The notes under the pieces were generated by a model. It made no database searches. It saw only the letters and a list, made by a program, of their open reading frames with translations, and was not told where the DNA came from. Below are positions 1,792 to 21,534 of a DNA stretch of 64,000 bases, piece after piece. Made by a program: the position numbers and the translations under genes. The stretch spans positions 63,966 through 127,965 of the forward strand of contig DATJPE010000063.1 in the NCBI GenBank assembly GCA_035506535.1, read 5' to 3'. Numbering within the stretch: the stretch's first letter is position 1; every line of letters begins with the position of its first letter. The DNA comes from Actinomycetes bacterium. GTDB taxonomy: Bacteria; Actinomycetota; Actinomycetes; DATJPE01.

Positions 1792-2666
1792 TGGACGCGG
1801 GCCTGCGCGCGCGCCTTGCCGACGTCCGGGGCGTCGTCTTCGACATCGACGGCTGCCTGATTCTCTCCGACCAGCCGGCCGGCCATGACGGGCTCGTGCT
1901 GCCCGGAGCCGTCGCGGCCGTGCACGACGTACGGGCCAGCGGGCGGCGGGTCCTCGCCTTCACCAACGCCTCCAGCCGCCCGCCCGCCGAGATCGCCGCC
2001 TCCCTGAACGAGCTGGGCTTCGCCTTCGGCGACGGGGAGGTGCTCACGCCCTCGGTCGTCGCCGCACAGGTCGTCCTCGACCGCTACGGGGACGCGCCCG
2101 TGCTTGCCTTCGGCGGGGACGGCCTCGTGGCGGTGCTCCGGGAGGCAGGGGTGCGCCTGGCCGACCCGGACCAGCCGGGCGAGGTGGCCGCCGTCGTGGT
2201 CGGCTGGGACGTCGCCTTCGACCAGGCCAAGCTGCAGTCCGCCGCCGAGGCGATCTGGCACGGGGCCCCGCTCCTGGTCACCAGCGACGCACCCGCGTTC
2301 GCGACCAGGGGCCGGCGCACGGCGGGAGCGGCGGGCTTCATCGCCAACGGCCTGGCACACGTGACGGGCGCCTCGTACGAGGTCGTCGGCAAGCCCTCGG
2401 CCGTCGCGCTACGCACCGCAGCGCGCCTGCTCGACGTGGCGCCGGAGGCGATGCTCGTCGCCGGGGACGACCTCACCCTCGAGGTCGCGATGGCCCGGCG
2501 GGGTGGTGGGGTGGGCGTGCTCGTGACGACCGGGATGCACACCGAGCGCGACGCCCGCCAGGCCCCGGAGGAGCAGCGTCCCGACCTCGTCGTCGGCGGC
2601 CTCGCCGAGCTGGTCGAGAGCCTGCTGGAGGCCGACAGCGCCCGGACGACCGCGGGGGCGGGCTGA
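1788..2666 (+). CDS. HAD superfamily hydrolase, subfamily IIA (NagD-like sugar-phosphatase)
   Basis: The tail of ORF 525..2666 starting at ATG 1788 gives MMDAGLRARLADVRGVVFDIDGC... with the DxDG motif and VVGKPS (the HAD-IIA GKP motif). Its start overlaps the previous stop, which suggests an operon. The upstream part of the 713-aa ORF is an Arg-rich alternate-frame artefact. Confidence 0.7.
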   Translation: MMDAGLRARLADVRGVVFDIDGCLILSDQPAGHDGLVLPGAVAAVHDVRASGRRVLAFTNASSRPPAEIAASLNELGFAFGDGEVLTPSVVAAQVVLDRYGDAPVLAFGGDGLVAVLREAGVRLADPDQPGEVAAVVVGWDVAFDQAKLQSAAEAIWHGAPLLVTSDAPAFATRGRRTAGAAGFIANGLAHVTGASYEVVGKPSAVALRTAARLLDVAPEAMLVAGDDLTLEVAMARRGGGVGVLVTTGMHTERDARQAPEEQRPDLVVGGLAELVESLLEADSARTTAGAG

Positions 2667-2763
2667 GCCCCCGCGCGACGTACCCGGCGACCGTCACGAT
2701 CTTCACAGCCCACGCACAGGCTCCTCTGAGGCCCGCTGAAGGTCCGCTTGGGAGAAAGGATCC

Positions 2764-4155
2764 GTGAACCCGACCGCCAGCGCGTCCGCCGTGGACGCCC
2801 GAGTCGCGGTCCGGGGAGGCGAGGCGAGCGCGCCCGCACCTGTGCGAGCCCATCCCACGGTGGTCCTCACGGTGATCGCGGCGGGCGCCCTCGCCGCGAT
2901 CGGTCTGTGGTGGGTCCACACCCCCGCGATCCACGGGCTCGGTGACTGGCTGACGAACGCCGGGCGCATCACGGGGCTGCTGGCCGGCTACGGCGTCGTG
3001 GTCCTGGTCGCGCTCATGGCCCGCATCCCGCCGCTGGAGCGTGGCATCGGTGCCGACCAGCTCGCGCGGTGGCACTCCATGGGCGGTCGCTATGTCGTCA
3101 GCCTGGTCGTCGCCCACGCGCTGCTCATCACCTGGGGGTACGCCGTCACGGCGCACACCACCGTGGTGACCCAGACCAAGACGCTGCTGACCAGCTATCC
3201 GGACGTCCTCATGGCGACGGTGGCGGGCCTGCTGCTCCTCGGCGTGGGGCTGGTCTCGATGCGGGCGGCACGGCGCCGCGTCCGGTACGAGACCTGGTAC
3301 TACCTGCACTTCTACACCTACCTCGCCGTGGCGCTGGCCTTCAGCCACCAGTTCGCCGACGGCGCGGAGTTCATGAGCAACCGCCCGGCGCGCGTGGCCT
3401 GGGCCGCGATGTACGCCGCCGTCGCGGCCGCCATCCTCTGGTACCGCTTCGCCACACCGGTGCGGCAGGCCTTCCGGCATCGGATGCGAGTGCTGTCGGT
3501 ACGTCGCGAGGCGCCCGGCGTCGTCACCGTCGAAATCACCGGCGAGCACCTCGAGGAGCTCGGCGCCGAGCCTGGCCAGTTCTTCCGCTGGCGCTTCCTC
3601 ACCCGCGAGCTGTGGTGGACCGCCACGCCGTACTCGCTGTCCGCCCCGCCTCGCCCCGACCGGCTGCGCATCACCGTGAAGGACCTGGGCGACGCCAGCC
3701 ACGCCCTCGCGTCGGTCCAGCCCGGGACTCGGGTGGTCGCCGAGGGCCCCTATGGCGCCCTCACCGCCGCCCTCCGTCGTCGCCGCAAGGTGCTCCTCGT
3801 CGGAGGCGGCGTCGGCATCACGCCGCTGCGAGCGCTGTTCCAGACGATCCCGGCCGGACCGGGAGAGCTGGGCCTGATCTATCGCGCGAGCGCGGAGCGC
3901 GACGTCGTGTTCCGCCGTGAGCTCGAGCGGATCGCGGAGAAGCGCCGGGCCAAGCTGTGGATCATCCCTGGCCGGCGCAGCGACCTCGGCGGCGACCCGC
4001 TCTCCGCCGAGCAGTTCGCGGCGCACGTACCGGACATCGCCGAGCACGAGGTGTACCTGTGCGGCCCGGCCGGCATGACCGCCTCGGTGACCGCGGCGTT
4101 GCGGGCCGCGGGCGTGCCCCGGCGGCAGATCCACCACGAGTCGTTCGAGTTCTGA
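2764..4155 (+). CDS. Ferric reductase-like transmembrane flavocytochrome (FRD domain plus FAD-binding and NAD(P)-binding domains)
   Basis: 463 aa. The N-terminal half is multi-pass hydrophobic with conserved His residues. The C-terminal half has FAD/NAD motifs (RxYS-like PYSLS, GGGVGITP, CGPAGM). Confidence 0.75.
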   Translation: MNPTASASAVDARVAVRGGEASAPAPVRAHPTVVLTVIAAGALAAIGLWWVHTPAIHGLGDWLTNAGRITGLLAGYGVVVLVALMARIPPLERGIGADQLARWHSMGGRYVVSLVVAHALLITWGYAVTAHTTVVTQTKTLLTSYPDVLMATVAGLLLLGVGLVSMRAARRRVRYETWYYLHFYTYLAVALAFSHQFADGAEFMSNRPARVAWAAMYAAVAAAILWYRFATPVRQAFRHRMRVLSVRREAPGVVTVEITGEHLEELGAEPGQFFRWRFLTRELWWTATPYSLSAPPRPDRLRITVKDLGDASHALASVQPGTRVVAEGPYGALTAALRRRRKVLLVGGGVGITPLRALFQTIPAGPGELGLIYRASAERDVVFRRELERIAEKRRAKLWIIPGRRSDLGGDPLSAEQFAAHVPDIAEHEVYLCGPAGMTASVTAALRAAGVPRRQIHHESFEF

Positions 4156-4169
4156 GGAGATCTCCCACC

Positions 4170-4649
4170 ATGCGCCGCGTCGTCCTCGCCACCGTCAGCA
4201 CGGTCGCGGGCCTCGTCATGCTCCTGACCTTCAAGACCCACGACGCCACCGCTGCGGCGGGGCCGGTCGCGACCGGAGGTGGCACGACCAGCGGGTCGAC
4301 GTCGGGCTCGGGCAGCGGCTCGTCCTCCGGGTCCGGCACCGGGTCGACGTCGGGCTCGGGGAGCGGCTCGACGACCGGCACCAAGACGGCCACGGGCGAT
4401 CCGGCCGACACGCAGTACGGCCCGGTGCAGGTGCAGGTGACGGTCGCCGACGGCAAGATCACCGACGTCCAGGCGGTCGAGTACCCGCAGAACTCCCCCC
4501 GCGACCAGCAGATCAACGCCTATGCGATCCCAGCGCTCAACCAGGAAGCGGTGCAGGCCGGGAACGCGAACATCGACATGATCTCCGGGGCGACGTTCAC
4601 ATCCGAGGGCTACATCCAGTCCCTGCAGAGCGCCCTGTCGAGGATCTGA
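4170..4649 (+). CDS. Extracytoplasmic FMN-binding domain protein (FMN_bind), membrane-anchored, with a Ser/Gly/Thr-rich linker
   Basis: ATG at 4170 after GGAGATCTCCCACC. It has an N-terminal TM/signal (MRRVVLATVSTVAGLVMLL), a low-complexity SGST linker, and a C-terminal ...ISGATFTSEGYIQSLQSAL, which is the FMN_bind signature. It sits 15 nt downstream of the ferric reductase gene. Confidence 0.7.
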   Translation: MRRVVLATVSTVAGLVMLLTFKTHDATAAAGPVATGGGTTSGSTSGSGSGSSSGSGTGSTSGSGSGSTTGTKTATGDPADTQYGPVQVQVTVADGKITDVQAVEYPQNSPRDQQINAYAIPALNQEAVQAGNANIDMISGATFTSEGYIQSLQSALSRI

Positions 4650-4661
4650 CTGCCGCGGCGG

Positions 4662-5045
4662 TCACCCGGGCTCGATGAGGTCCCACAGGTTCCCGTAGCG
4701 GTCCGCGAACACGAGCACCCGGCCGTAGCTCTCCACGCGCGGCCCGTCCACGATCCGCACGTCGCGTCGTCGGAGCCTGGCGTGGTCGTCGTCGAAGCGG
4801 TCCGTGTGCAGGAAGAACCCCACCCGCCCGCCGGTCTGGCGACCGATCACCTCGGCCTGCGCCGCCGTGGCTGCTCGCGCCAGCAGCACGTGCGGCCCGT
4901 CCTCACCCGAGGGTGCCACCCGGACCCAACGCTTGCCCTGTCCGAGAGGCGTGTCCTCGACCAGCTCGAACCCGAGGTCGTCGACGAAGTGAGCGATCGC
5001 CCGGTCGTAGTCGTCCACGACGACCGTCACGCCCGCCAACCTCAC
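4662..5045 (-). CDS. VOC family protein (glyoxalase/bleomycin-resistance fold)
   Basis: 127-aa ORF with the betaalphabetabetabeta-type pattern (VVDDYDRAIAHFVDDLGFELVED...). Its size is typical of the family. Confidence 0.65.
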   Translation of the reverse strand: MRLAGVTVVVDDYDRAIAHFVDDLGFELVEDTPLGQGKRWVRVAPSGEDGPHVLLARAATAAQAEVIGRQTGGRVGFFLHTDRFDDDHARLRRRDVRIVDGPRVESYGRVLVFADRYGNLWDLIEPG

Positions 5046-5232
5046 CCGGCGAATCTAGAGGCTGCCGTCGTCCGACAGCAGCGCGCCCGCGGTGGCGGTG
5101 GGCTATGAACTCGAGCTGTGCGTGTCCGGCTGGTGTGGGCCTGGACCGGCGTGTGATGCATAGTCGCAGGTCAGGGGCCTGGGAGTGGCGGCCCGTGACC
5201 CACTCGTCCCACCGCCGGGCGAGCACGTGCAA

Positions 5233-13474: not shown

Positions 13475-14854
13475 CTACAGGCCCTTGACGGCGGCGACGA
13501 CCTTGGTGAGGGAGTCCTTGGCGTCACCGAAGAGCAGGGTGGTGTTCGGTTGGTACAGCAGCTCGTTGTCGATGCCGGCGAAGCCGGGGCGCATCGAGCG
13601 CTTGAGGAAGACCACGTTCGCCGCCTGCGCGACGTCGAGGATCGGCATGCCGTAGATCGGGCAGCCAGGGTCGGTACGGGCCGCCGGGTTGACGACGTCG
13701 TTGGCTCCCACGACGAGCGCGACATCCGTCGATGCCAGCTGCGGGTTGACCTCCTCGGCCTCGTGCAGCGCCTCGTAGGGGACGTTCGCCTCGGCCAGCA
13801 GGACGTTCATGTGGCCGGGCATGCGGCCGGCCACCGGGTGGATGCCGTAGATGACGTCGACGCCGCGTTCCCCGAGCAGGTCGGCGAGCTCGCGCAGGGC
13901 GTGCTGGCCCTGGGCGACGGCCAGGCCGTACCCGGGGACGATGACCACCCTGCGGGCGTACCCGAGCAGGATGGCGACGTCCTCCGGGCTGCCCGAGCGG
14001 ACCGGGCGGTCGCTCACCGTTCCGCCACCGATCGTCGAGGCGCCGGAGAACGCACCGAACAGGGTCTTGGTCAGAGGGCGCCCCATGGCCGTGGCCATCA
14101 TCCGGGTCAGCAGCGTGCCGGAGGCCCCGACGAGGGTGCCGGCCACGAGGAGCAGCACGTTGTTCAGGACGTAGCCGCTCGCGGCCACGCTGAGGCCGGT
14201 GAAGGCGTTGAGCAGTGAGATGACGATGGGTACGTCGGCGCCGCCGACGGGCAGCACGAACAGCACACCCAGCACCAGCGAGACCAGCGCCAGGGCGACC
14301 AGTACGGCCATCGACCTCGAAGGCACCACGGCGACCGCGAGCGCCACGGCAGCGAGGGCGACCCCGATCGAGACCCAGCGCCCGAACGGCACGACGACTG
14401 GGCGGGTCGTGATGAGCTCCTGCAGCTTGAGGAAGGTGACCACCGAGCCGCTGAACGAGACGGACCCGACGAGCACGGTGAACGCGCTCGCCGCGAGGTA
14501 GCGGCTCGAGGCGTGGGACCCGCCGTCGTCGAACTCGATGAGGGCGACGAGTGCGGCAGCGGCTCCACCAACGCCGTTGAACATGGCGACCAGCTGGGGC
14601 ATCGCGGTCATCGCCACGCGGCGGGCCGCCGGGACGGCCACTGCCGCGCCCACGGCGATCGCGACGAGGACGAGCAAGAGGTGCTGGGCGTCGAGGTCCT
14701 CGTGAACGATCGTCACGATGACGGCGAGCGCCGCGCCCGCAGCGCCGATCAGGTTGCCGTTGCGGGCCGTCCTCGGCGAGGAGAGCCCCTTGAGGGCGAG
14801 GATGAAGCAGACGGCTGCGACCAGGTACAGCAGCCGGACCCACGTGTCGCTCAC
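13475..14854 (-). CDS. pntB: NAD(P) transhydrogenase subunit beta
   Basis: 459 aa. The N-terminus is polytopic and the C-terminal domain III is an NADP(H)-binding domain (GYGLAVAQGQH..., GANDVVNPAA). Confidence 0.9.
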   Translation of the reverse strand: MSDTWVRLLYLVAAVCFILALKGLSSPRTARNGNLIGAAGAALAVIVTIVHEDLDAQHLLLVLVAIAVGAAVAVPAARRVAMTAMPQLVAMFNGVGGAAAALVALIEFDDGGSHASSRYLAASAFTVLVGSVSFSGSVVTFLKLQELITTRPVVVPFGRWVSIGVALAAVALAVAVVPSRSMAVLVALALVSLVLGVLFVLPVGGADVPIVISLLNAFTGLSVAASGYVLNNVLLLVAGTLVGASGTLLTRMMATAMGRPLTKTLFGAFSGASTIGGGTVSDRPVRSGSPEDVAILLGYARRVVIVPGYGLAVAQGQHALRELADLLGERGVDVIYGIHPVAGRMPGHMNVLLAEANVPYEALHEAEEVNPQLASTDVALVVGANDVVNPAARTDPGCPIYGMPILDVAQAANVVFLKRSMRPGFAGIDNELLYQPNTTLLFGDAKDSLTKVVAAVKGL

Positions 14855-15162
14855 GCCTGAGGTCTCCCGTCCGGGGTGGCCTTGGGCGCCTGTCTCGGCT
14901 TGAACATCTGCAGCATCCGGTCGGTGACCACGAAGCCCCCGACCATGTTCACCGTGGCCAGTACGACGGCCACCAGTCCGAGCCCGAGCTCGAGGCCGTG
15001 CGCGTGACCGGTGACCACGATCGCCCCGACGAGGATCACGCCATGGATGGCGTTGGCGCCCGACATCAGCGGGGTGTGCAGGGTCGTCGAGACCTTCGAG
15101 ATGACCTCGAAGCCGACGAACACCGAGAGCACGAAGACCGTGAGCAGGCCGATGCCGTCCAT
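14851..15162 (-). CDS. pntAB: NAD(P) transhydrogenase subunit alpha part 2 (membrane segment)
   Basis: About 103 aa from ATG 15162 (MDGIGLLTVFVLSVFVGFEVISKV...). There is an ATGA overlap with the pntAA stop and a 4-nt overlap with the pntB start. Confidence 0.8.
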   Translation of the reverse strand: MDGIGLLTVFVLSVFVGFEVISKVSTTLHTPLMSGANAIHGVILVGAIVVTGHAHGLELGLGLVAVVLATVNMVGGFVVTDRMLQMFKPRQAPKATPDGRPQA

Positions 15163-16289
15163 CAGGCGGGGTCCTCCCCGGGCAGGGTGATTCCGTCGCG
15201 CAACGTCCCGTCCCGGGTCACCCAGGACCCGGCCACGATCTCGTCCTCCCACCGGGGCGCGAGCGAGCCGTCCTCGCCGGCCAGCAGCGCGAGGAGCGCG
15301 AAGACGTTCGCGGAGTACAGCTTGGCGGCGTGTACGGGCAGCTGCGAGGCGACGTCCCGCGCGCCCCACACCAGCACGCCGTGGTGGTCGACCTCCTCGC
15401 CGGGGCGCGAGACGTCGCAGTTGCCGCCGCTCTCGGCGGCGAGGTCGACGACGACCGACCCGGGCTTCATCCCGGCGACCATGTCGCCGGTCACCAGCAG
15501 CGGGGCGCGGCGCCCGGGGACGGCCGCGGTGAGGATGAGGGCGTCGGCGGCAGCGACGTACGGCGCCAGCAGCTCGCGCTGCCGCTGCGCGCGGTCCTCG
15601 GTCATCTCCCGGGCGTACCCCCCGGCGCCCTCCAGGGAGTCCAGGTCGAGCTCGACGAACGTCGCGCCCATGGAGCGGACCTCCTCGGCCGCCGCGGCCC
15701 GCACGTCGTAGGCCTCAACGACGGCGCCGAGCCGCCGGGCGGTCGCGATCGCCTGCAGGCCGGCCACGCCGGCACCCAGGACGAGCACCTTGGCGGGCGG
15801 GACGGTGCCCGCGGCGGTCATGAGGAGCGGGAAGAAGCGCGGCAGCCGGTCCGCGGCGACCAGCGCCGAGCGATAGCCGGTCACCAGGGCCTGGGAGGAC
15901 AGCGCGTCCATCGACTGGGCGCGCGAGATCCGGGGCAACAGCTCGAAGGCGAAGCTGGTGACGCCGCGCGCGAGCGCGGCGCGTACGGCTGCCGGCTCGC
16001 CGGTCGGCGAGCAGAAGCCGAGCGTCACGCCGGTCGGGGCCAGCCGCGCGATGCGCGCGGGGTCCAGGGCGGCGACGTGGACGACGACGTCGGCGGCGAG
16101 CGCCTCGGCCTCGTCGCAGGGGTGCGCGCCCGCGGCGACGTAGGCGTCGTCGTCCGCGAGGGCTGCCCGGCCGGCCCCGCGCTCGACGGCGACCTCGTGA
16201 CCGTCCTTCACCAGCCGCTGGACGTGCTCGGGCACGAGGGCGACCCGGCGCTCGCCCGGGCGCGACTCGGCGGGGACCCCGATCCTCAT
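15162..16289 (-). CDS. pntAA: NAD(P) transhydrogenase subunit alpha part 1 (NAD(H)-binding domain I)
   Basis: 375 aa. Alanine dehydrogenase/PNT N- and C-domains with a Rossmann GxGxxG motif (VLVLGAGVAGLQA). Confidence 0.9.
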   Translation of the reverse strand: MRIGVPAESRPGERRVALVPEHVQRLVKDGHEVAVERGAGRAALADDDAYVAAGAHPCDEAEALAADVVVHVAALDPARIARLAPTGVTLGFCSPTGEPAAVRAALARGVTSFAFELLPRISRAQSMDALSSQALVTGYRSALVAADRLPRFFPLLMTAAGTVPPAKVLVLGAGVAGLQAIATARRLGAVVEAYDVRAAAAEEVRSMGATFVELDLDSLEGAGGYAREMTEDRAQRQRELLAPYVAAADALILTAAVPGRRAPLLVTGDMVAGMKPGSVVVDLAAESGGNCDVSRPGEEVDHHGVLVWGARDVASQLPVHAAKLYSANVFALLALLAGEDGSLAPRWEDEIVAGSWVTRDGTLRDGITLPGEDPA

Positions 16290-16436
16290 CGCGGACTCTC
16301 CACCCGGGTGGCGGATCGCTCGAGGGCGCTCATCCCGACCTCATGCGCGCACCCTAGGCGACGCGGGTGCCGAGATCGCGGAGGGGTCGCCGGGCGGCGG
16401 GAACCCGGCGGGCGTACGGCCAGGACTGGGAGGAGG

Positions 16437-17864
16437 TCAGTCCCGGCCGTACGACCGCTCGGCGGACGCCCGGAGGGGGTCAGGCTCGGCGGTGATGCCG
16501 GCCTGGTCGAGCGCCCGTTCGAGACAGACCAGCGCGGCCTGCTCGTCCCCCAGCCGACGCAGCACGTCGGCTGAGTGTCGCCACGCCAGCGCGGTCACGC
16601 GGGAGGGCGGCAGCCCGGCGAGGGCTTCCACCGCCTCTCCTACGTGCTCGCGGGCGAGGCTGTGATCCCCGGTCACGGTCCATGCGTCCGCCGCGGCGAG
16701 GCTGGCGGAGACGCTCTCGACGCGGTGTCCCGCGGAGAGCAGGGCAGCGGCCTCGGTGGCCTCCGCGAGGGCGGCTTCGGCGTCCCCGAGCATCAGGAGC
16801 GCACGCGAGAGCTCGGTGTGCGCGTAGGCCCGGTCGGTGACCGTGCCGTGCTCATGCAGGGTGACCGCCGCGTCGCGAAGCAGCCCGACCGCGCGGGACA
16901 CCTGCGGGGGCTGCGAGCGCAGCAGCACCCAGGCGAAGGCGACCCTGGCCCGCGCGAGGTTGCGCTCGTTGTCCTGGTCGGCCAGCAGGCTCACCGCACG
17001 CTCGGCCCACGACAGCGCCTTGTCGAGGTGCCCGCGGCGCTGCGCGAGCAGGCTGGCGTTCCAGTACGCCGCCGCTCGCGCGCGCGGACTGCCCAGCCGG
17101 TCCGCCGCCTGCAGGAGGTCCTCGGCGAGCTGGGCCGCTCGGGCGGCGTCGCCGCGTCGCTCGTAGCAGCCGACGAGGGTTGACACGAGCTCGGCGTGCT
17201 CGGCGGTGCCGTCCAGCCCCTGCTCGCGGGCCGCCGCCAGGGCGCTCTCGGCGACGTCCACCGCCCGGTGCAGGTCCCCGATCTCGGCCGAGCACCGGGC
17301 CGCCGTCACCGCGGCGGGCAGCCACAGGGGGTGGTCGGGGCGCAGGTCGTCGCGCAGGTGCTCCAGGTCGACCAGCGCCTCCTCGAGGCGGCCCTCGGCC
17401 TCCAGCGCACGGACGCGGCCCCATCGGGCCCGCTCGACCAGGCCCAGGCGCACCCGGTCGCGGCCGGGACCCCCGGCCTCGGCCGCGTCCGGGTGCCGGG
17501 CCAGCCGCTCTCCCGCCGCGGCGAAGGCGTCGACGGCGGCGTGCGCCTCACCGGAGCGCAGGGCGAGCTCGGCGTAGTCGAGCTCGAGTCTGGACTCCCG
17601 CAGCTCGGGGTCCTCGACCCCGGTCAGGAGGGTCTCGACCGAGACCCCGAGGAGGCCGGAGAGGGCGGCGAGGACCGGTGGAGTCGGCTGGCGACGGCCG
17701 GACTCCAGCAAGGAGACGTAGCTGGCCGAGACCCCCGGGCAGACCAGATCGGACTGCAGCAGACCCCGCTCCGTGCGCAGGTGGCGCAACCGCGCCCCGA
17801 AGGACTCCTCCATTCGGGCGAAGCCTGGTGGACGGTCTGTAGCCTTCCCGCCTCCCCGTGTCAT
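16437..17864 (-). CDS. XRE-family HTH transcriptional regulator with a large C-terminal TPR-like helical-repeat domain (RNPP/PlcR-like architecture)
   Basis: HTH_XRE at the N-terminus (FGARLRHLRTERGLLQSDLV...VSASYVSLLESGRRQPT) is followed by about 400 aa of Ala/Leu-rich helical repeats. ATG 17864 is preferred because it follows an AGGTGAG RBS. The ORF's upstream extension to 18002 lacks an RBS. Confidence 0.7.
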   Translation of the reverse strand: MTRGGGKATDRPPGFARMEESFGARLRHLRTERGLLQSDLVCPGVSASYVSLLESGRRQPTPPVLAALSGLLGVSVETLLTGVEDPELRESRLELDYAELALRSGEAHAAVDAFAAAGERLARHPDAAEAGGPGRDRVRLGLVERARWGRVRALEAEGRLEEALVDLEHLRDDLRPDHPLWLPAAVTAARCSAEIGDLHRAVDVAESALAAAREQGLDGTAEHAELVSTLVGCYERRGDAARAAQLAEDLLQAADRLGSPRARAAAYWNASLLAQRRGHLDKALSWAERAVSLLADQDNERNLARARVAFAWVLLRSQPPQVSRAVGLLRDAAVTLHEHGTVTDRAYAHTELSRALLMLGDAEAALAEATEAAALLSAGHRVESVSASLAAADAWTVTGDHSLAREHVGEAVEALAGLPPSRVTALAWRHSADVLRRLGDEQAALVCLERALDQAGITAEPDPLRASAERSYGRD

Positions 17865-17896
17865 ATTCTCACCTGACTGCACATGACACATGACAC
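17858..17896. promoter_or_regulatory. Operator-like heptamer repeats GTGTCAT-N18-ATGACAC-ATGACAC in the 52-bp divergent spacer between the XRE/TPR regulator and the small peptide gene
   Basis: The inverted repeat GTGTCAT/ATGACAC plus a tandem third copy overlaps the regulator start codon and precedes the peptide gene RBS. Confidence 0.4.
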
Positions 17897-17916
17897 CACA
17901 GACCTCGGGAGATGTC

Positions 17917-18060
17917 ATGAAGCGCCGCCTGATCGCAGTAGTGGCCGTGTCGGCCGTCGCGGTCCTCGGCTTCCCGTCGATGGCCTCGGCCACGACGGCC
18001 AAGCCGCACGTGACTCATGCGGTGCACACGCTCATGGCCGGCCCGCCGTTCTGCTGCTGA
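17917..18060 (+). CDS. Small secreted peptide precursor (47 aa; Sec signal peptide, then a His-rich 22-aa mature peptide ending in FCC). It is absent from the ORF track because it is under 60 aa.
   Basis: ATG 17917 follows GGGAGATGTC. Translation: MKRRLIAVVAVSAVAVLGFPSMASA|TTAKPHVTHAVHTLMAGPPFCC*. The n/h/c regions of the signal peptide are canonical, with an AxA cleavage site. It is divergent from the XRE/TPR regulator. Confidence 0.4.
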   Translation: MKRRLIAVVAVSAVAVLGFPSMASATTAKPHVTHAVHTLMAGPPFCC

Positions 18061-18139
18061 CGGCGTGGCCAGCACCTACCGGACCCGTACCGCGTCGCCC
18101 GTGACCGGCCGACGCGTCCAGACCATCGAAAGGCATCCC

Positions 18140-18418
18140 ATGGCGACCAGGACCCAGCCTCGCGTCCCCCAACCTCGGGTCACGGGCGGGACCGCTGTCG
18201 CCCCAGCACCGGCCTGCGCCGCCGACGCCCCATGGGCAGCGCTGACCGAGGACGAGCACGCCGAGCTCGTGCGCCTGCGCGCCGAGAAGGCGCAGCTGCA
18301 GAACCGGGTCCATGACCTGAACCTGGAGCTCACGCTCGTCAAGGCCGCCGCCGCCCTCTTCGTCGGAGAGCACGGTCGGCTCGGCCCCAGACACCTCGCC
18401 GCTCCCGAGGTGGCCTGA
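18140..18418 (+). CDS. Hypothetical small protein (92 aa) with a Pro-rich N-terminus and a predicted coiled-coil (EHAELVRLRAEKAQLQNRVHDLNLELTLVKAAAA)
   Basis: ATG 18140 follows GAAAGG. It is co-oriented with the peptide gene and ends 50 nt before a strong terminator. The call rests on coding potential only. Confidence 0.35.
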   Translation: MATRTQPRVPQPRVTGGTAVAPAPACAADAPWAALTEDEHAELVRLRAEKAQLQNRVHDLNLELTLVKAAAALFVGEHGRLGPRHLAAPEVA

Positions 18419-18467
18419 CCGTCCCCCCCGGTCGGGTACCGCGGCGTCGCGTCCGGTGTGCCCGAGG

Positions 18468-18505
18468 GAGGGGCCGCTGCTTCCAGCAGCGGCCCCTCCT
18501 TCTTC
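18468..18505 (+). terminator. Intrinsic terminator hairpin GAGGGGCCGCTG-cttccag-CAGCGGCCCCTC followed by CTTCTTCG
   Basis: A perfect 12-bp GC-rich stem with a 7-nt loop and a T-rich tail lies downstream of the 18140..18418 gene. Confidence 0.6.
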
Positions 18506-18645
18506 GAGGTCTCCGACGTGTCGGCCCCGCCAACTTGTTAGGCGTTGGGGGGTCGATAGACGCTCCAACGCCTAACAGTTCGTGAGGAGCAGCGGGTCAC
18601 GGGGGCAGCGGGTCGCCCCGTCGCCCGAGTCGTGGACGGCCGACG

Positions 18646-20028
18646 TCACAAGACCTTGCCCGGGTTGAGGACGCCGAGGGGGTCCAGCGTGTGCTTGATC
18701 GCCCGCTGCACCCGAAGCGCCGTCGGCGACAGCTCGCGCTCCAGCCATTCGCGCTTGAGCACGCCCACGCCGTGCTCACCGGTGATCGTGCCCCCGAGAC
18801 TCAGCCCGAGCTCCATCACCGCGCCGAAGGCGGCGTACGCGCGTCGCTCCACGTCGGCGTCCCCGCGCTCGAAGACCACCGTGGGGTGCATGTTCCCGTC
18901 GCCCGCGTGGCCCGCGCACGTGATGAGGACGCCCTGCTCCTCCCCGATCCGGGCCAGCCCGTCGACGAGGTCGACCAGGCGAGCCCGAGGCACGCACACG
19001 TCCTCCACGAGGGTGGAGCCGAGCGCGTCGACCCCCCAGTGCACGAGCCGCCGGGCCTCGAGCAGCAGCTCGGACTCGGTCGCGTCGCTCGCGACGGCCA
19101 GGTCCAGCGCGCCGGCCTCGCGGCACACCGCGGCCATCGCCTCGAGGTCCTCCGGCGCGTGCGGCCCCCGGTCGGACTGGGCCACCAGCAGCGCGCCGGT
19201 GTCGGTCGGCAGCCCGAGGTCGCGATAGGCCTGCACGGCCCGTACCGTCTCGCGGTCGAGGAACTCGAGCAGGCTCGGCGGCTGCCCGCTCGCCATGATC
19301 GTGGCCACGGCGGCCATCGCGGCATGGGTCGACGGGAACACCGCCGCCAGGGTCAGCGCCGGCTCGGGGAGCGGGCGCAAGGTGAGCGTCGCCTCGGTGA
19401 CCACGCCGAGGGTGCCCTCAGACCCCACGAACAGGCGGGTCAGGTCGTAGCCGGCGACGCCCTTGGCGGTCGACGTACCGGTGCGCAGCACCTCGCCGTC
19501 GGCGAGGACGACCTCGAGCCCGCGTACGGCTTCGCGCGTGACGCCGTACTTCAAGCAGCGCATCCCGCCGGCTCCGGTGGCCACGTTGCCGCCGATCGTG
19601 CTCTCGCGAAACGACGAGGGGTCGGGGGGGAAGAACAGCCCGTGCTCGCCCGCCGCCTCCTGCAGCGTCGCGTTGACCACGCCCGGCTGCACCACCGCCA
19701 GCTGCTCAGCCGGGTCCAGGCGCAGGATGCGGTCCATCCGTTCGAGGCAGACGACGATGCAGCCGTCGACCGCGTTGGCCGCCCCGGCCAGGCCGGTACG
19801 GGCGCCCTGCGGCACCACCGGCGTACGGTGCGCGCTGGCCACCCGGAGCACGCCCGCGACCTCCTCGGTGCTACCTGGGTGGACGACGGCCAGCGGTACG
19901 CCCGCCGGGCAGAAGCGCGCGTGGTCGTGGCGGTAGGCCTCGGTGCTGGCCTCCTGGGTGAGCACCGAGGCCGTGACCGCTTCCAGGTCGCGGATCACCG
20001 CGTCCCGCCCGAGCACCTGCACCGACAT
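18646..20028 (-). CDS. FAD-linked oxidase, GlcD / D-lactate dehydrogenase family (FAD-binding PCMH domain)
   Basis: 461 aa from ATG 20028 (MSVQVLGRDAVIRDLEAV...). It has FAD-binding type 4 motifs and a C-terminal FAD-oxidase domain (HGVGVLKREWL). The upstream 190 codons of the 652-aa ORF are non-coding. Confidence 0.8.
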   Translation of the reverse strand: MSVQVLGRDAVIRDLEAVTASVLTQEASTEAYRHDHARFCPAGVPLAVVHPGSTEEVAGVLRVASAHRTPVVPQGARTGLAGAANAVDGCIVVCLERMDRILRLDPAEQLAVVQPGVVNATLQEAAGEHGLFFPPDPSSFRESTIGGNVATGAGGMRCLKYGVTREAVRGLEVVLADGEVLRTGTSTAKGVAGYDLTRLFVGSEGTLGVVTEATLTLRPLPEPALTLAAVFPSTHAAMAAVATIMASGQPPSLLEFLDRETVRAVQAYRDLGLPTDTGALLVAQSDRGPHAPEDLEAMAAVCREAGALDLAVASDATESELLLEARRLVHWGVDALGSTLVEDVCVPRARLVDLVDGLARIGEEQGVLITCAGHAGDGNMHPTVVFERGDADVERRAYAAFGAVMELGLSLGGTITGEHGVGVLKREWLERELSPTALRVQRAIKHTLDPLGVLNPGKVL

Positions 20029-20259: not shown

Positions 20260-21534
20260 ATGGGCCTGGCCACGGCCACCGACACCGGCCTCGGCGACGA
20301 GCTGGCCGCCGTGATCGGCCGTCGTTCGGTCACGCCCGCCTACCAGCCCATCGTCGACCTCGAGACGGGGGAGACGGTCGCCTTCGAGGCGCTGGCCCGC
20401 GGGCCCGAGGGCTCGCCCCTGGAGAACCCCGCCGCCCTGTTCGCCACGGCTCGGACCAACGGCCGCCTGGGCGAGCTCGACGCCCTGTGCCGCCAGCGCG
20501 CGATCGAGGGGATGCTCGCGGCCGACCTGCCCCGCGAGGTGGTCCTGTTCGTCAACGTCGAACCGTCCTCCCTCGGCTTCGAGGACGTCACCAGGCCGCT
20601 CCACCCGAGCGAGGACGGTACGTCCGCCGGCCGCATGCGCATCGTCATGGAGATCACCGAGCAGTCCCTCACCTCGCGGCCCGCCGAGCTGCTCGCCCTG
20701 GTCGAACGCTCCCGTGCTCGGGGCTGGGGCATCGCGTTGGACGACGTCGGGTCCGACTCACGGGCGCTGGGCCTGATCTCCCTCATCGAGCCGGACGTGT
20801 TCAAGATCGACCTGCGGCTGGTGTCCTCCCGGGCCACGACGGAGATCGCCGGCGTCGTGGCCGGCGTCGAGGCGCAGGCCGAGCGGACCGGCGCGCTGAT
20901 CCTCGCCGAGGGGATCGAGACCGAGGAGGACGTCGAGCTGGCCCGGGGGATGGGGGCGCGTCTCGGGCAGGGCTGGTACTTCGGCCGGCCGGCGGCCCTG
21001 CCGCACGACCTCTCCGGAGGCCCCTCCGCCCTCGCCCTGACCGGAGCGAGCCTGAGCTCGCGACGCAGCCCGTTCGAGATCGCCGCGGCGAGCCGGCCGG
21101 TACGTCGTGCCGGCAAGCGCCAGCTGCTCGCCATGAGCCACCACCTGGAGCACGAGGCGCTCGGACTCGGCGTCAAGGCCGCCGTGTTCGCCTCCTTCCA
21201 GCACGTCCGCAACTTCACCGCGGCGACCCGCGCGCGCTACGCCCAGCTCGGGACCGGCACCGCCTTCGTCGGGGTCTTCGCGCAGAACATGACGCCGGCC
21301 CCGCTGCGCGGTGTGTGGGGGGCGCGGCTGGGCGAGGACGACCCGCTGCGCGAGGAGTGGGACCTGGCGGTGGTCGGGCCGCACTTCGCCGCGGCGCTCG
21401 TGTCGCGCGACCTCGGCGACGAGGGCGCCGAGGAGGACCGCCGCTTCGACTACGTGATGACCTACGACCGCGACATCGTCGTCGAGGTCGCCCGCAGCCT
21501 CATGAGCCGGCTCGACCGAGCCCCCGCTCCCTGA
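20260..21534 (+). CDS. EAL-domain c-di-GMP phosphodiesterase with a C-terminal domain of unknown function
   Basis: The EAL signature (FEALAR), DDVG(S) (the DDFGTG equivalent) and EGIETEE (the EGVE equivalent) are present. There is no GGDEF domain. The C-terminal 150 aa are unassigned. Confidence 0.75.
   Translation: MGLATATDTGLGDELAAVIGRRSVTPAYQPIVDLETGETVAFEALARGPEGSPLENPAALFATARTNGRLGELDALCRQRAIEGMLAADLPREVVLFVNVEPSSLGFEDVTRPLHPSEDGTSAGRMRIVMEITEQSLTSRPAELLALVERSRARGWGIALDDVGSDSRALGLISLIEPDVFKIDLRLVSSRATTEIAGVVAGVEAQAERTGALILAEGIETEEDVELARGMGARLGQGWYFGRPAALPHDLSGGPSALALTGASLSSRRSPFEIAAASRPVRRAGKRQLLAMSHHLEHEALGLGVKAAVFASFQHVRNFTAATRARYAQLGTGTAFVGVFAQNMTPAPLRGVWGARLGEDDPLREEWDLAVVGPHFAAALVSRDLGDEGAEEDRRFDYVMTYDRDIVVEVARSLMSRLDRAPAP

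Follow-up and report, generated by a model that had tools for sequence, protein, structure and literature searches.

Gene organization of the locus

A 64-kb stretch of DNA from an Actinomycetes bacterium (assembly GCA_035506535.1, contig DATJPE010000063.1), hereafter called the window, contains a regulator gene and, on the opposite strand, a very small open reading frame (ORF) for a putative secreted peptide. The original prediction had described the regulator (16437..17864, minus strand) as an XRE-type helix-turn-helix (HTH) protein with a tetratricopeptide repeat (TPR) domain, and the 47-aa ORF, 52 bp away, as a peptide precursor, the two forming an RRNPP-like signalling module. ORF calling, Pfam and an AlphaFold2 (AF2) model agree on the regulator, and the small ORF was found at exactly this distance, encoding MKRRLIAVVAVSAVAVLGFPSMASA followed by TTAKPHVTHAVHTLMAGPPFCC. 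The data presented below tip the balance, by a modest amount, towards a two-gene peptide signalling cassette of the RRNPP-like kind. The features of the pair are as follows.

16437..17864, minus strand: regulator (putative receptor) gene, 475 aa, from the ORF call and Pfam
17622..17801, minus strand: XRE-type HTH DNA-binding domain, residues 22-81, from Pfam, the AF2 helices and the alignment with PlcR
16503..17609, minus strand: TPR-type superhelical domain, residues 86-454, presumed to bind the ligand and carrying the family-invariant motif AAYWNAS (W268, N269)
17865..17916, no strand: divergent control region of 52 bp between the regulator and peptide genes
17873..17889, no strand: candidate operator CTGAC-N7-GACAC, a degenerate copy of a palindrome, aligned by eye to loci L013, L084 and L002
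17907..17911, plus strand: ribosome-binding site GGGAG, 5 nt 5' of the ATG, read from the sequence
17917..18060, plus strand: propeptide gene, 47 aa and stop, MKRRLIAVVAVSAVAVLGFPSMASATTAKPHVTHAVHTLMAGPPFCC, with a coding GC content at third codon positions (GC3) and kept in relatives
17917..17991, plus strand: predicted Sec-type signal peptide MKRRLIAVVAVSAVAVLGFPSMASA, with the n-region KRR, an h-region of 15 residues and the cleavage motif ASA
17992..18057, plus strand: predicted exported part TTAKPHVTHAVHTLMAGPPFCC, 22 residues, made up of a variable spacer (17992-18039) and the C-terminal GPPFCC (18040-18057), which is the presumed signal moiety

The regulator

Pfam matched the regulator with HTH_31 (E 2.5e-9, residues 22-77), HTH_3 (E 5.3e-8) and TPR_12 (E 3.2e-9). 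In the AF2 model, for which 16 homologues served as input (mean predicted local distance difference test score, pLDDT, 88.5; predicted template modelling score, pTM, 0.79), the HTH occupies residues 22-81 and is followed by about nine helix pairs at residues 86-454. Pfam, the model and fold comparison all identify this C-terminal part as a TPR-type superhelix. Both ends of the model (residues 1-17 and 460-475) are disordered. Because of the disorder of residues 1-17, and because a metagenome protein 99% identical to the regulator was called 17 residues shorter, the start of the gene is uncertain. Met17 (nt 17816) may be the alternative start, giving a protein of 459 aa and a gap to the small ORF of 100 bp instead of 52 bp. 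The GC content of the gene by codon position is 0.83/0.54/0.91.

At E<=1e-3, 142 homologues of the regulator were retrieved from the database. The family is well delimited: clustered at 50% identity, it has 293 representatives at E<=1e-30, almost all of them about 440-470 aa long. All named homologues belong to the Actinomycetota. A metagenome scan with the single regulator as query detected one HTH fragment and nothing more.

The small ORF

The GC content of the small ORF by codon position (0.62/0.56/0.90) follows the coding pattern of a 72% GC genome, and in all six frames of the window the sequence Cys-Cys-stop occurs once, at the end of this ORF. Signal peptides were judged throughout by n/h/c-region rules, from a heuristic scan for hydrophobicity and AxA alone. 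By these rules the small ORF and most members of its family show a basic n-region, a hydrophobic h-region and an AxA motif, and a Sec signal is predicted. A Tat signal was considered for the KRR of the n-region and rejected, as the twin arginine is not kept (KCR in L001); a lipoprotein was rejected as well, as the peptide has no lipobox. A protein-database search with the 47-aa peptide alone gave no matches, Pfam and NCBIfam contained no family for the Cys-Cys peptides, and neither of two sub-threshold Rfam matches in the window lay over the small ORF.

Conservation in close relatives

Five contigs (L001, L002, L084, L086 and L087) carried regulator homologues 56-81% identical to that of the window together with enough flanking sequence. 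A divergent small ORF was present beside the regulator in all five, with the following peptide C-termini.

L001: ...TRTQGPPYCC
L086: ...TKTNGPPMCC
L087: ...AKMAGPPYCC
L084: ...VAMHVPPYCC
L002: ...VVHLAPPLCC

All of these peptides keep a signal peptide and end in an invariant PPxCC, and the spacer between the two shows indels and substitutions. The Pro codons of PPxCC differ synonymously. The 52-bp control region is of constant length and free of indels among the window and L001, L084, L086 and L087. On the metagenome contig L087 the regulator as called (2501-3634, 377 aa) lacks part of its N-terminus and is out of frame at its C-terminus, owing to an assembly error or because this copy is a pseudogene. 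The neighbouring peptide gene is intact, as is a second small ORF described below.

Distribution of the pair across the phylum

When one genome per species was scanned, 80 loci were recovered whose regulators share 34-45% identity with the query; their sources are Streptomyces, Nocardioides, Nonomuraea, Kutzneria, Kitasatospora, Umezawaea, Frankiales, Mycobacteriales and many metagenome-assembled genomes. Under strict criteria (an ORF of <=120 aa with a hydrophobic N-terminus and ending Cys-Cys-stop), a peptide ORF was found in 61 of the 80 genome loci, or 63 of 82 when L001 and L002 are counted. When a short tail after Cys-Cys was permitted, eight further loci were added (69/80). Examples of such tailed peptides are ...PPHCCR, ...PPVCCISS and GPGPCC with 6-12 further residues. 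The last form is confined to one Streptomyces clade (L016 4349-4501, L022 4441-4623, L042 4611-4805), and tails of 1-4 residues occur in L004, L031, L033 and L047. Two of the 11 negative loci (L037 and L063) are cut off where sister loci have the peptide.

The strict hits were concentrated at the regulator: 59 lay no more than 500 bp from a regulator end, in 86.5 kb of sequence, compared with five in the other 385 kb. All five are homologous peptides as well, made up of the extra copy in L006 and of Streptosporangiaceae peptides encoded about 2.1 kb from the regulator. In L006, two gene copies (4545-4697 and 4974-5126), which differ in their upstream sequence, encode an identical 50-aa peptide (...EPGFPGCC) downstream of one regulator. 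In most loci of the family the regulator and the peptide gene are 16-340 bp apart.

The peptide gene lies divergently upstream of the regulator in 10 loci (including L001 and L002), upstream on the same strand in three, downstream on the same strand in three, and convergently just downstream in 43, mostly from Streptomyces and Nocardioides. The divergent arrangement of the original prediction therefore holds for the window and not for most Streptomyces and Nocardioides loci. Since the gene arrangement varies across loci, the pair has survived rearrangement.

These results bear on the suggestion that the small ORF is a cis-acting, cysteine-sensing leader peptide, or an ORF that arose by chance. 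When a short ORF ends in repeated codons for the same amino acid, as the small ORF does with its two Cys codons, it resembles an attenuator leader. A peptide gene that converges on the regulator, as in 43 loci, has no downstream gene to attenuate, and the conserved signal peptide with its AxA motif has no role in a leader. The single occurrence of Cys-Cys-stop in the window and the enrichment of 59 to five exclude a chance ORF. We consider both explanations extremely improbable.

The RRNPP-like reading had been staked beforehand on three points, and it stood on each of them: the small ORF is kept beside the same regulator in close and distant relatives, the C-terminal part of the regulator has a TPR fold, and regulator homologues co-occur with small signal-peptide ORFs. 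The function as a re-imported signal is the putative part of this reading.

The peptide family

The 68 unique peptides of the family are 35-68 aa long (median 49). Lys or Arg is present within the first eight residues in 64 of them, and apart from the terminal pair no further Cys occurs past residue 25. Cys at positions -1 and -2 in all 68 is due to the selection of the peptide set. The C-terminal consensus is approximately (G/D)-x-P-(W/L/V)-C-C, with Pro at -4 in 44 peptides and Trp or Leu at -3 in 42. Ribosome-binding sites of the GGAG type, judged by eye, precede most of the ORFs. A profile of 34 peptides matched seven proteins in the protein database, all annotated as hypothetical and all near relatives of peptides already collected; the three that were checked for context adjoin an HTH-TPR gene.

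The residues before Cys-Cys follow the clades of a neighbour-joining tree of the regulators.

Window's clade: PPxCC
Streptomyces: D(I/V)P(L/V)CC, GFPPCC, DFPPCC
Nocardioides: R(T/N)(V/I)WCC, DRNWCC
Frankiales: KDDWCC

The peptide had also been described as His-rich. This is true of the window, where three of the 22 exported residues are His, and does not extend to the family, in which the conserved mark is Pro-x-Cys-Cys or Trp-Cys-Cys. His makes up 4% of the family spacers, and His-rich spacers occur in few clades, including the window's clade and the Frankiales with KDDWCC peptides. His-richness was rejected as a defining feature of the family because it varies between clades.

The composition of the peptides can be read in another way, in which the secreted Cys-Cys peptide is not the ligand but the target of the regulator, a local transcription factor. 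The peptide would act outside the cell on metals or redox state through its dithiol, with His added in some clades, and with no re-uptake, and the ligand of the TPR domain would be something else, such as a small molecule (the case in MalT). An invariant Cys-Cys pair is more suggestive of common chemistry than of a code, and the His-rich spacers of the window's clade and the Frankiales peptides fit such a role, but His is not kept family-wide. Moreover, the last 5-6 residues are fixed and the spacer drifts, as in a processed signal such as PapR or Phr and unlike a folded metal site. The retention of a TPR regulator with a secreted peptide across orders, despite divergent, convergent and tandem rearrangement, is what is expected of a ligand and its receptor. 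Taking these points together with those given in the next two sections, we regard a purely extracellular thiol peptide as rather unlikely.

Candidate operator

Of 73 peptide genes, 20 have the palindrome TTGAC-N7-GTCAA (<=1 mismatch) within 150 bp upstream, compared with three of 213 other genes taken from the same loci (Fisher p 1.4e-10). With looser spacing the palindrome was detected upstream of 31 of 73 peptide genes and in 105 of 3580 windows, N7 being the dominant spacing. The strict search gave no match in the 64-kb stretch itself, where CTGAC-N7-GACAC would be the operator of the control region; a copy of this type is kept in the clade, as TTGAC-N7-GACAC in L084. A palindrome upstream of the peptide gene points to regulation of the peptide and not to sensing of it, which is also what would be expected of a secreted thiol peptide under local control.

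Neighbouring genes across loci

Clustering of all plausible ORFs in about 80 loci placed the regulator in a cluster common to 75 loci, and the next cluster was found in 12. No modifying enzyme, transporter, metal transporter or redox enzyme conserved beside the pair was detected in this clustering. The conserved unit is therefore a two-gene cassette. The absence of a metal transporter or redox enzyme nearby counts against the extracellular thiol peptide, and the absence of any other conserved neighbour counts against a cluster for a ribosomally synthesized and post-translationally modified peptide (RiPP).

If the small ORF were a RiPP precursor, its Cys-Cys would be processed by enzymes encoded elsewhere and the regulator would control the pathway. 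Peptides are commonly modified at a C-terminal Cys, and candidate processing genes are present in some clades, namely an S9 prolyl oligopeptidase in Streptosporangiaceae and a protein of 430-455 aa in twelve Streptomyces loci. However, the regulator alone is conserved and no modifying enzyme is family-wide, the small ORF begins with a Sec signal peptide instead of a RiPP leader, and no precursor family of Pfam or NCBIfam was matched. This origin of the peptide appears improbable.

The S9 prolyl oligopeptidase-family gene lies between the regulator and peptide genes (L034 4338-6185; also L037, L045, L051 and L052), and is divergent from the peptide gene, which is located about 2.1 kb from the regulator. 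As these peptides have a conserved Pro before x-Cys-Cys, a neighbouring protease of the post-proline type is suggestive of a role in processing. The 430-455 aa protein is encoded divergently from the peptide gene in 12 Streptomyces and Kitasatospora loci (e.g. L008 4746-6032); it has no Pfam domain and a weak alaS-like match (E 0.0015), and could be under the control of the system or take part in processing. L060 and its sister loci in Nocardioides carry a PAS-HisKA histidine kinase gene (4714-6321 in L060) that immediately precedes the peptide gene in the same orientation.

Other features of the window

Downstream of the peptide gene the following features were identified.

18091..18116, plus strand: short hairpin with arms of 11 nt (91%), separating the peptide gene from the 92-aa ORF
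18140..18418, plus strand: 92-aa ORF with no signal peptide, codirectional with the peptide gene, GC3 0.85
18464..18502, plus strand: terminator-like hairpin with 18-nt arms (94% complementary) and a 3-nt loop, followed by TTCTTC, before a convergent FAD-oxidase gene

The first hairpin may attenuate read-through. The 92-aa ORF corresponds to the small coiled-coil ORF that had been thought to close the unit. It exists and has a conserved helical core (LRAEKAQLQxRVxDLNLELTLVKAAAALFV), but tblastn found it only in L001, L002, L084, L086 and L087, i.e. in the window's clade, where it is intact beside the truncated regulator of L087. It was rejected as a core component on these grounds and is best described as a clade-specific accessory. 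Pfam and NCBIfam contained no family for it. In the window's clade it may be the first regulated output.

The strong terminator that had been proposed corresponds to the terminator-like hairpin at 18464-18502. A consensus scan for promoters and terminators over 16200-18800 made no calls, and missed this hairpin because it has no T-run. Just past it, in the gap before the convergent FAD-oxidase gene, is a second strong hairpin (18536-18577; TGTTAGGCGTTGGGGGGTC / GACGCTCCAACGCCTAACA) with 19-nt arms (89% complementary) and a 4-nt loop.

On the other side, pntAA-pntAB-pntB, encoding NAD(P) transhydrogenase, lies downstream of the regulator on the same strand (13475-16289, minus) after a gap of 147 bp, and its synteny with the regulator is kept in L001, L002, L084, L086 and L087. 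An ORF of the window at 20260-21534 clusters with GGDEF-EAL proteins near regulator homologues in three other loci (e.g. L014 3458-5173), a proximity that is probably coincidental.

Proposed mechanism and its evaluation

In the proposed signalling cassette, the 47-aa product would be exported by the Sec pathway and cleaved after ASA. Trimming of the variable spacer outside the cell would lead to the build-up of a short C-terminal peptide ending Pro-Phe-Cys-Cys, which would be taken up, presumably via an oligopeptide permease, and would bind the concave TPR face of the cytoplasmic XRE-HTH regulator. The bound regulator would change its affinity for the palindromic operator in the shared 52-bp control region, and thereby expression of the peptide gene (feedback) and, in the window's clade, of the 92-aa ORF. 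The Cys-Cys pair might serve for recognition as a free C-terminus, or it might form a vicinal disulfide as an extracellular cap, which would be reduced once the peptide has entered the cell. We infer cleavage and processing, uptake and direct contact of the peptide with the TPR domain, and likewise the sign of regulation and what the Cys-Cys pair does.

In favour of the signalling cassette are the architectures of both proteins, the coding signatures of the small ORF, the co-occurrence of the pair throughout the phylum, agreement with published in-silico criteria for RRNPP systems (given below), C-termini that follow the regulator clades, the lack of any other conserved partner, and the enriched palindrome. 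Several observations weigh against it. A clade of Nonomuraea and Bailinhaonella has the regulator with no adjacent peptide: in L061, L066, L071, L074 and L076, no ORF with a signal peptide or Cys-Cys was found within 3 kb of the regulator. Such regulators could be orphan receptors or have their peptide gene at another site. Over half of the loci, the window among them, have a degenerate palindrome or none, and the co-variation of peptide and regulator may merely mirror shared descent. The invariant Cys-Cys in all clades is unlike known RRNPP peptides and could mean a shared extracellular chemistry, and no RRNPP-specific model of Pfam or NCBIfam matched the regulator at E<=1. Finally, every functional step is read from sequence or from a structural model.

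A wider interpretation is that Actinomycetota, including Streptomyces and Nocardioides, possess RRNPP-type quorum sensing throughout the phylum, with Sec-exported peptides that end in (Pro/Trp)-x-Cys-Cys, the preceding clade-specific residues serving as the code. The Cys-Cys would add a layer, sensitive to redox state (as disulfide or dithiol) or to metals, that is absent from known RRNPP peptides. We put this forward tentatively, as a proposal that falls a little short of an even chance.

Novelty and significance

γ-Butyrolactones are an example of the small-molecule signals of actinobacteria. Peptide (RRNPP) systems have been described as a feature of Firmicutes, and Actinomycetota as small-molecule signallers (PMC10075063). 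The original prediction had held that the receptor-propeptide signature was essentially undescribed in Actinobacteria. In agreement with this, a search of the non-subscription literature on RRNPP, PlcR, XRE-TPR or Cys-Cys peptides in Streptomyces, Actinobacteria or Actinomycetota turned up no such system. On a narrow balance of the evidence, the new elements here would be RRNPP-like logic in a new phylum, a new receptor subfamily, and a new class of peptides marked by a terminal Cys-Cys. The small peptide genes are mostly unannotated or listed as hypothetical, and this would account for the system having gone unnoticed.

If the signalling interpretation is correct, peptide signalling through TPR receptors would extend to the main antibiotic-producing phylum (Streptomyces, Nocardioides, Frankiales, Kutzneria, Kitasatospora and uncultured lineages), and dozens of clade-specific peptide-receptor pairs would be available for tests with synthetic peptides. 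In Streptomyces development, signalling by extracellular peptides has long been suspected, reportedly in connection with the BldK oligopeptide permease, and the present family would then be a candidate class for such signals.

Comparison with known systems

The modelled fold of the regulator resembles MalT domain III, Rap and NprR, with MalT as the best fold match. A Foldseek search of the PDB gave generic TPR matches led by LGN and APC subunits, with no discrimination. The fold thus fits an RRNPP-type receptor, though a model of this kind is no proof of peptide binding. The MalT-like fold of the TPR domain is the structural point in favour of small-molecule sensing beside an extracellular thiol peptide. 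MalT is a STAND ATPase with a C-terminal LuxR-type HTH that senses maltotriose, whereas the regulator has no ATPase, carries an N-terminal XRE-type HTH and is adjoined by a secreted-peptide gene. The TPR_MalT model (PF17874) scored 25 bits on the regulator against a cut-off of 45, which is below membership of the MalT type (STAND/LAL).

Two further families were matched below their cut-offs: NsdA (NF053720; 20.9 bits against 75, over the N-terminal region alone) and the TPR protein of FxSxx-COOH systems (NF040586; 23.6 bits against 300). Unlike those of FxSxx-COOH systems, the peptides described here end in Cys-Cys and not in FxSxx. The module also differs from the arbitrium system of Bacillus phages (AimR-AimP-AimX), since it is chromosomal and its downstream ORF is restricted to one clade. 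Viral contigs of IMG/VR contained HTH-sized matches and no full-length receptor homologue, and a phage-borne, arbitrium-like origin was therefore rejected.

Among the RRNPP systems, NprR and Rap show a sequence identity of just 10-13% to the regulator, and eukaryotic TPR proteins score similarly. Rap proteins have no HTH, unlike the regulator, and both NprR-NprX and Rap-Phr differ in gene order and have no peptide motif in common with the Cys-Cys family. Published in-silico criteria for RRNPP systems call for a propeptide of 10-100 aa with a Sec tag, a receptor of 250-500 aa with TPRs, and a spacing of -60 to 400 bp (PMC10075063). The present pair has a propeptide of 47 aa, a receptor of 475 aa with TPRs and a spacing of 52 bp, and with the Sec signal that is predicted by heuristic rules it would agree with all five. 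The regulator also has the N-terminal XRE-type HTH found in RRNPP subfamilies other than Rap. The host range differs from that described (Firmicutes and their mobile elements), as all named homologues are from Actinomycetota.

By sequence, the closest likeness is to PlcR-PapR of the Bacillus cereus group. When the family profile was compared with PDB sequences, the best natural match was PlcR of Bacillus thuringiensis (E 5.3e-14, profile positions 3-186), covering the HTH and the first TPRs in register, including the motif S-x-VS-x-(I/L)ESG; proteins with an HTH only scored about 1e-9. The regulator is some 180 residues longer than PlcR, with about nine repeats, and in this respect is nearer to NprR; past the first TPRs no sequence similarity to PlcR was detectable. 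The active part of PapR is its C-terminal heptapeptide (PMC6568020). PlcR-PapR likewise combines an XRE-type HTH fused to a TPR domain with an adjacent small gene for a Sec-exported propeptide (export being predicted here), a conserved and presumably active extreme C-terminus, and a palindromic operator, which is a candidate in the present case. PlcR-PapR belongs to Firmicutes, whereas the pair described here belongs to Actinomycetota and its peptides end in an invariant Cys-Cys.

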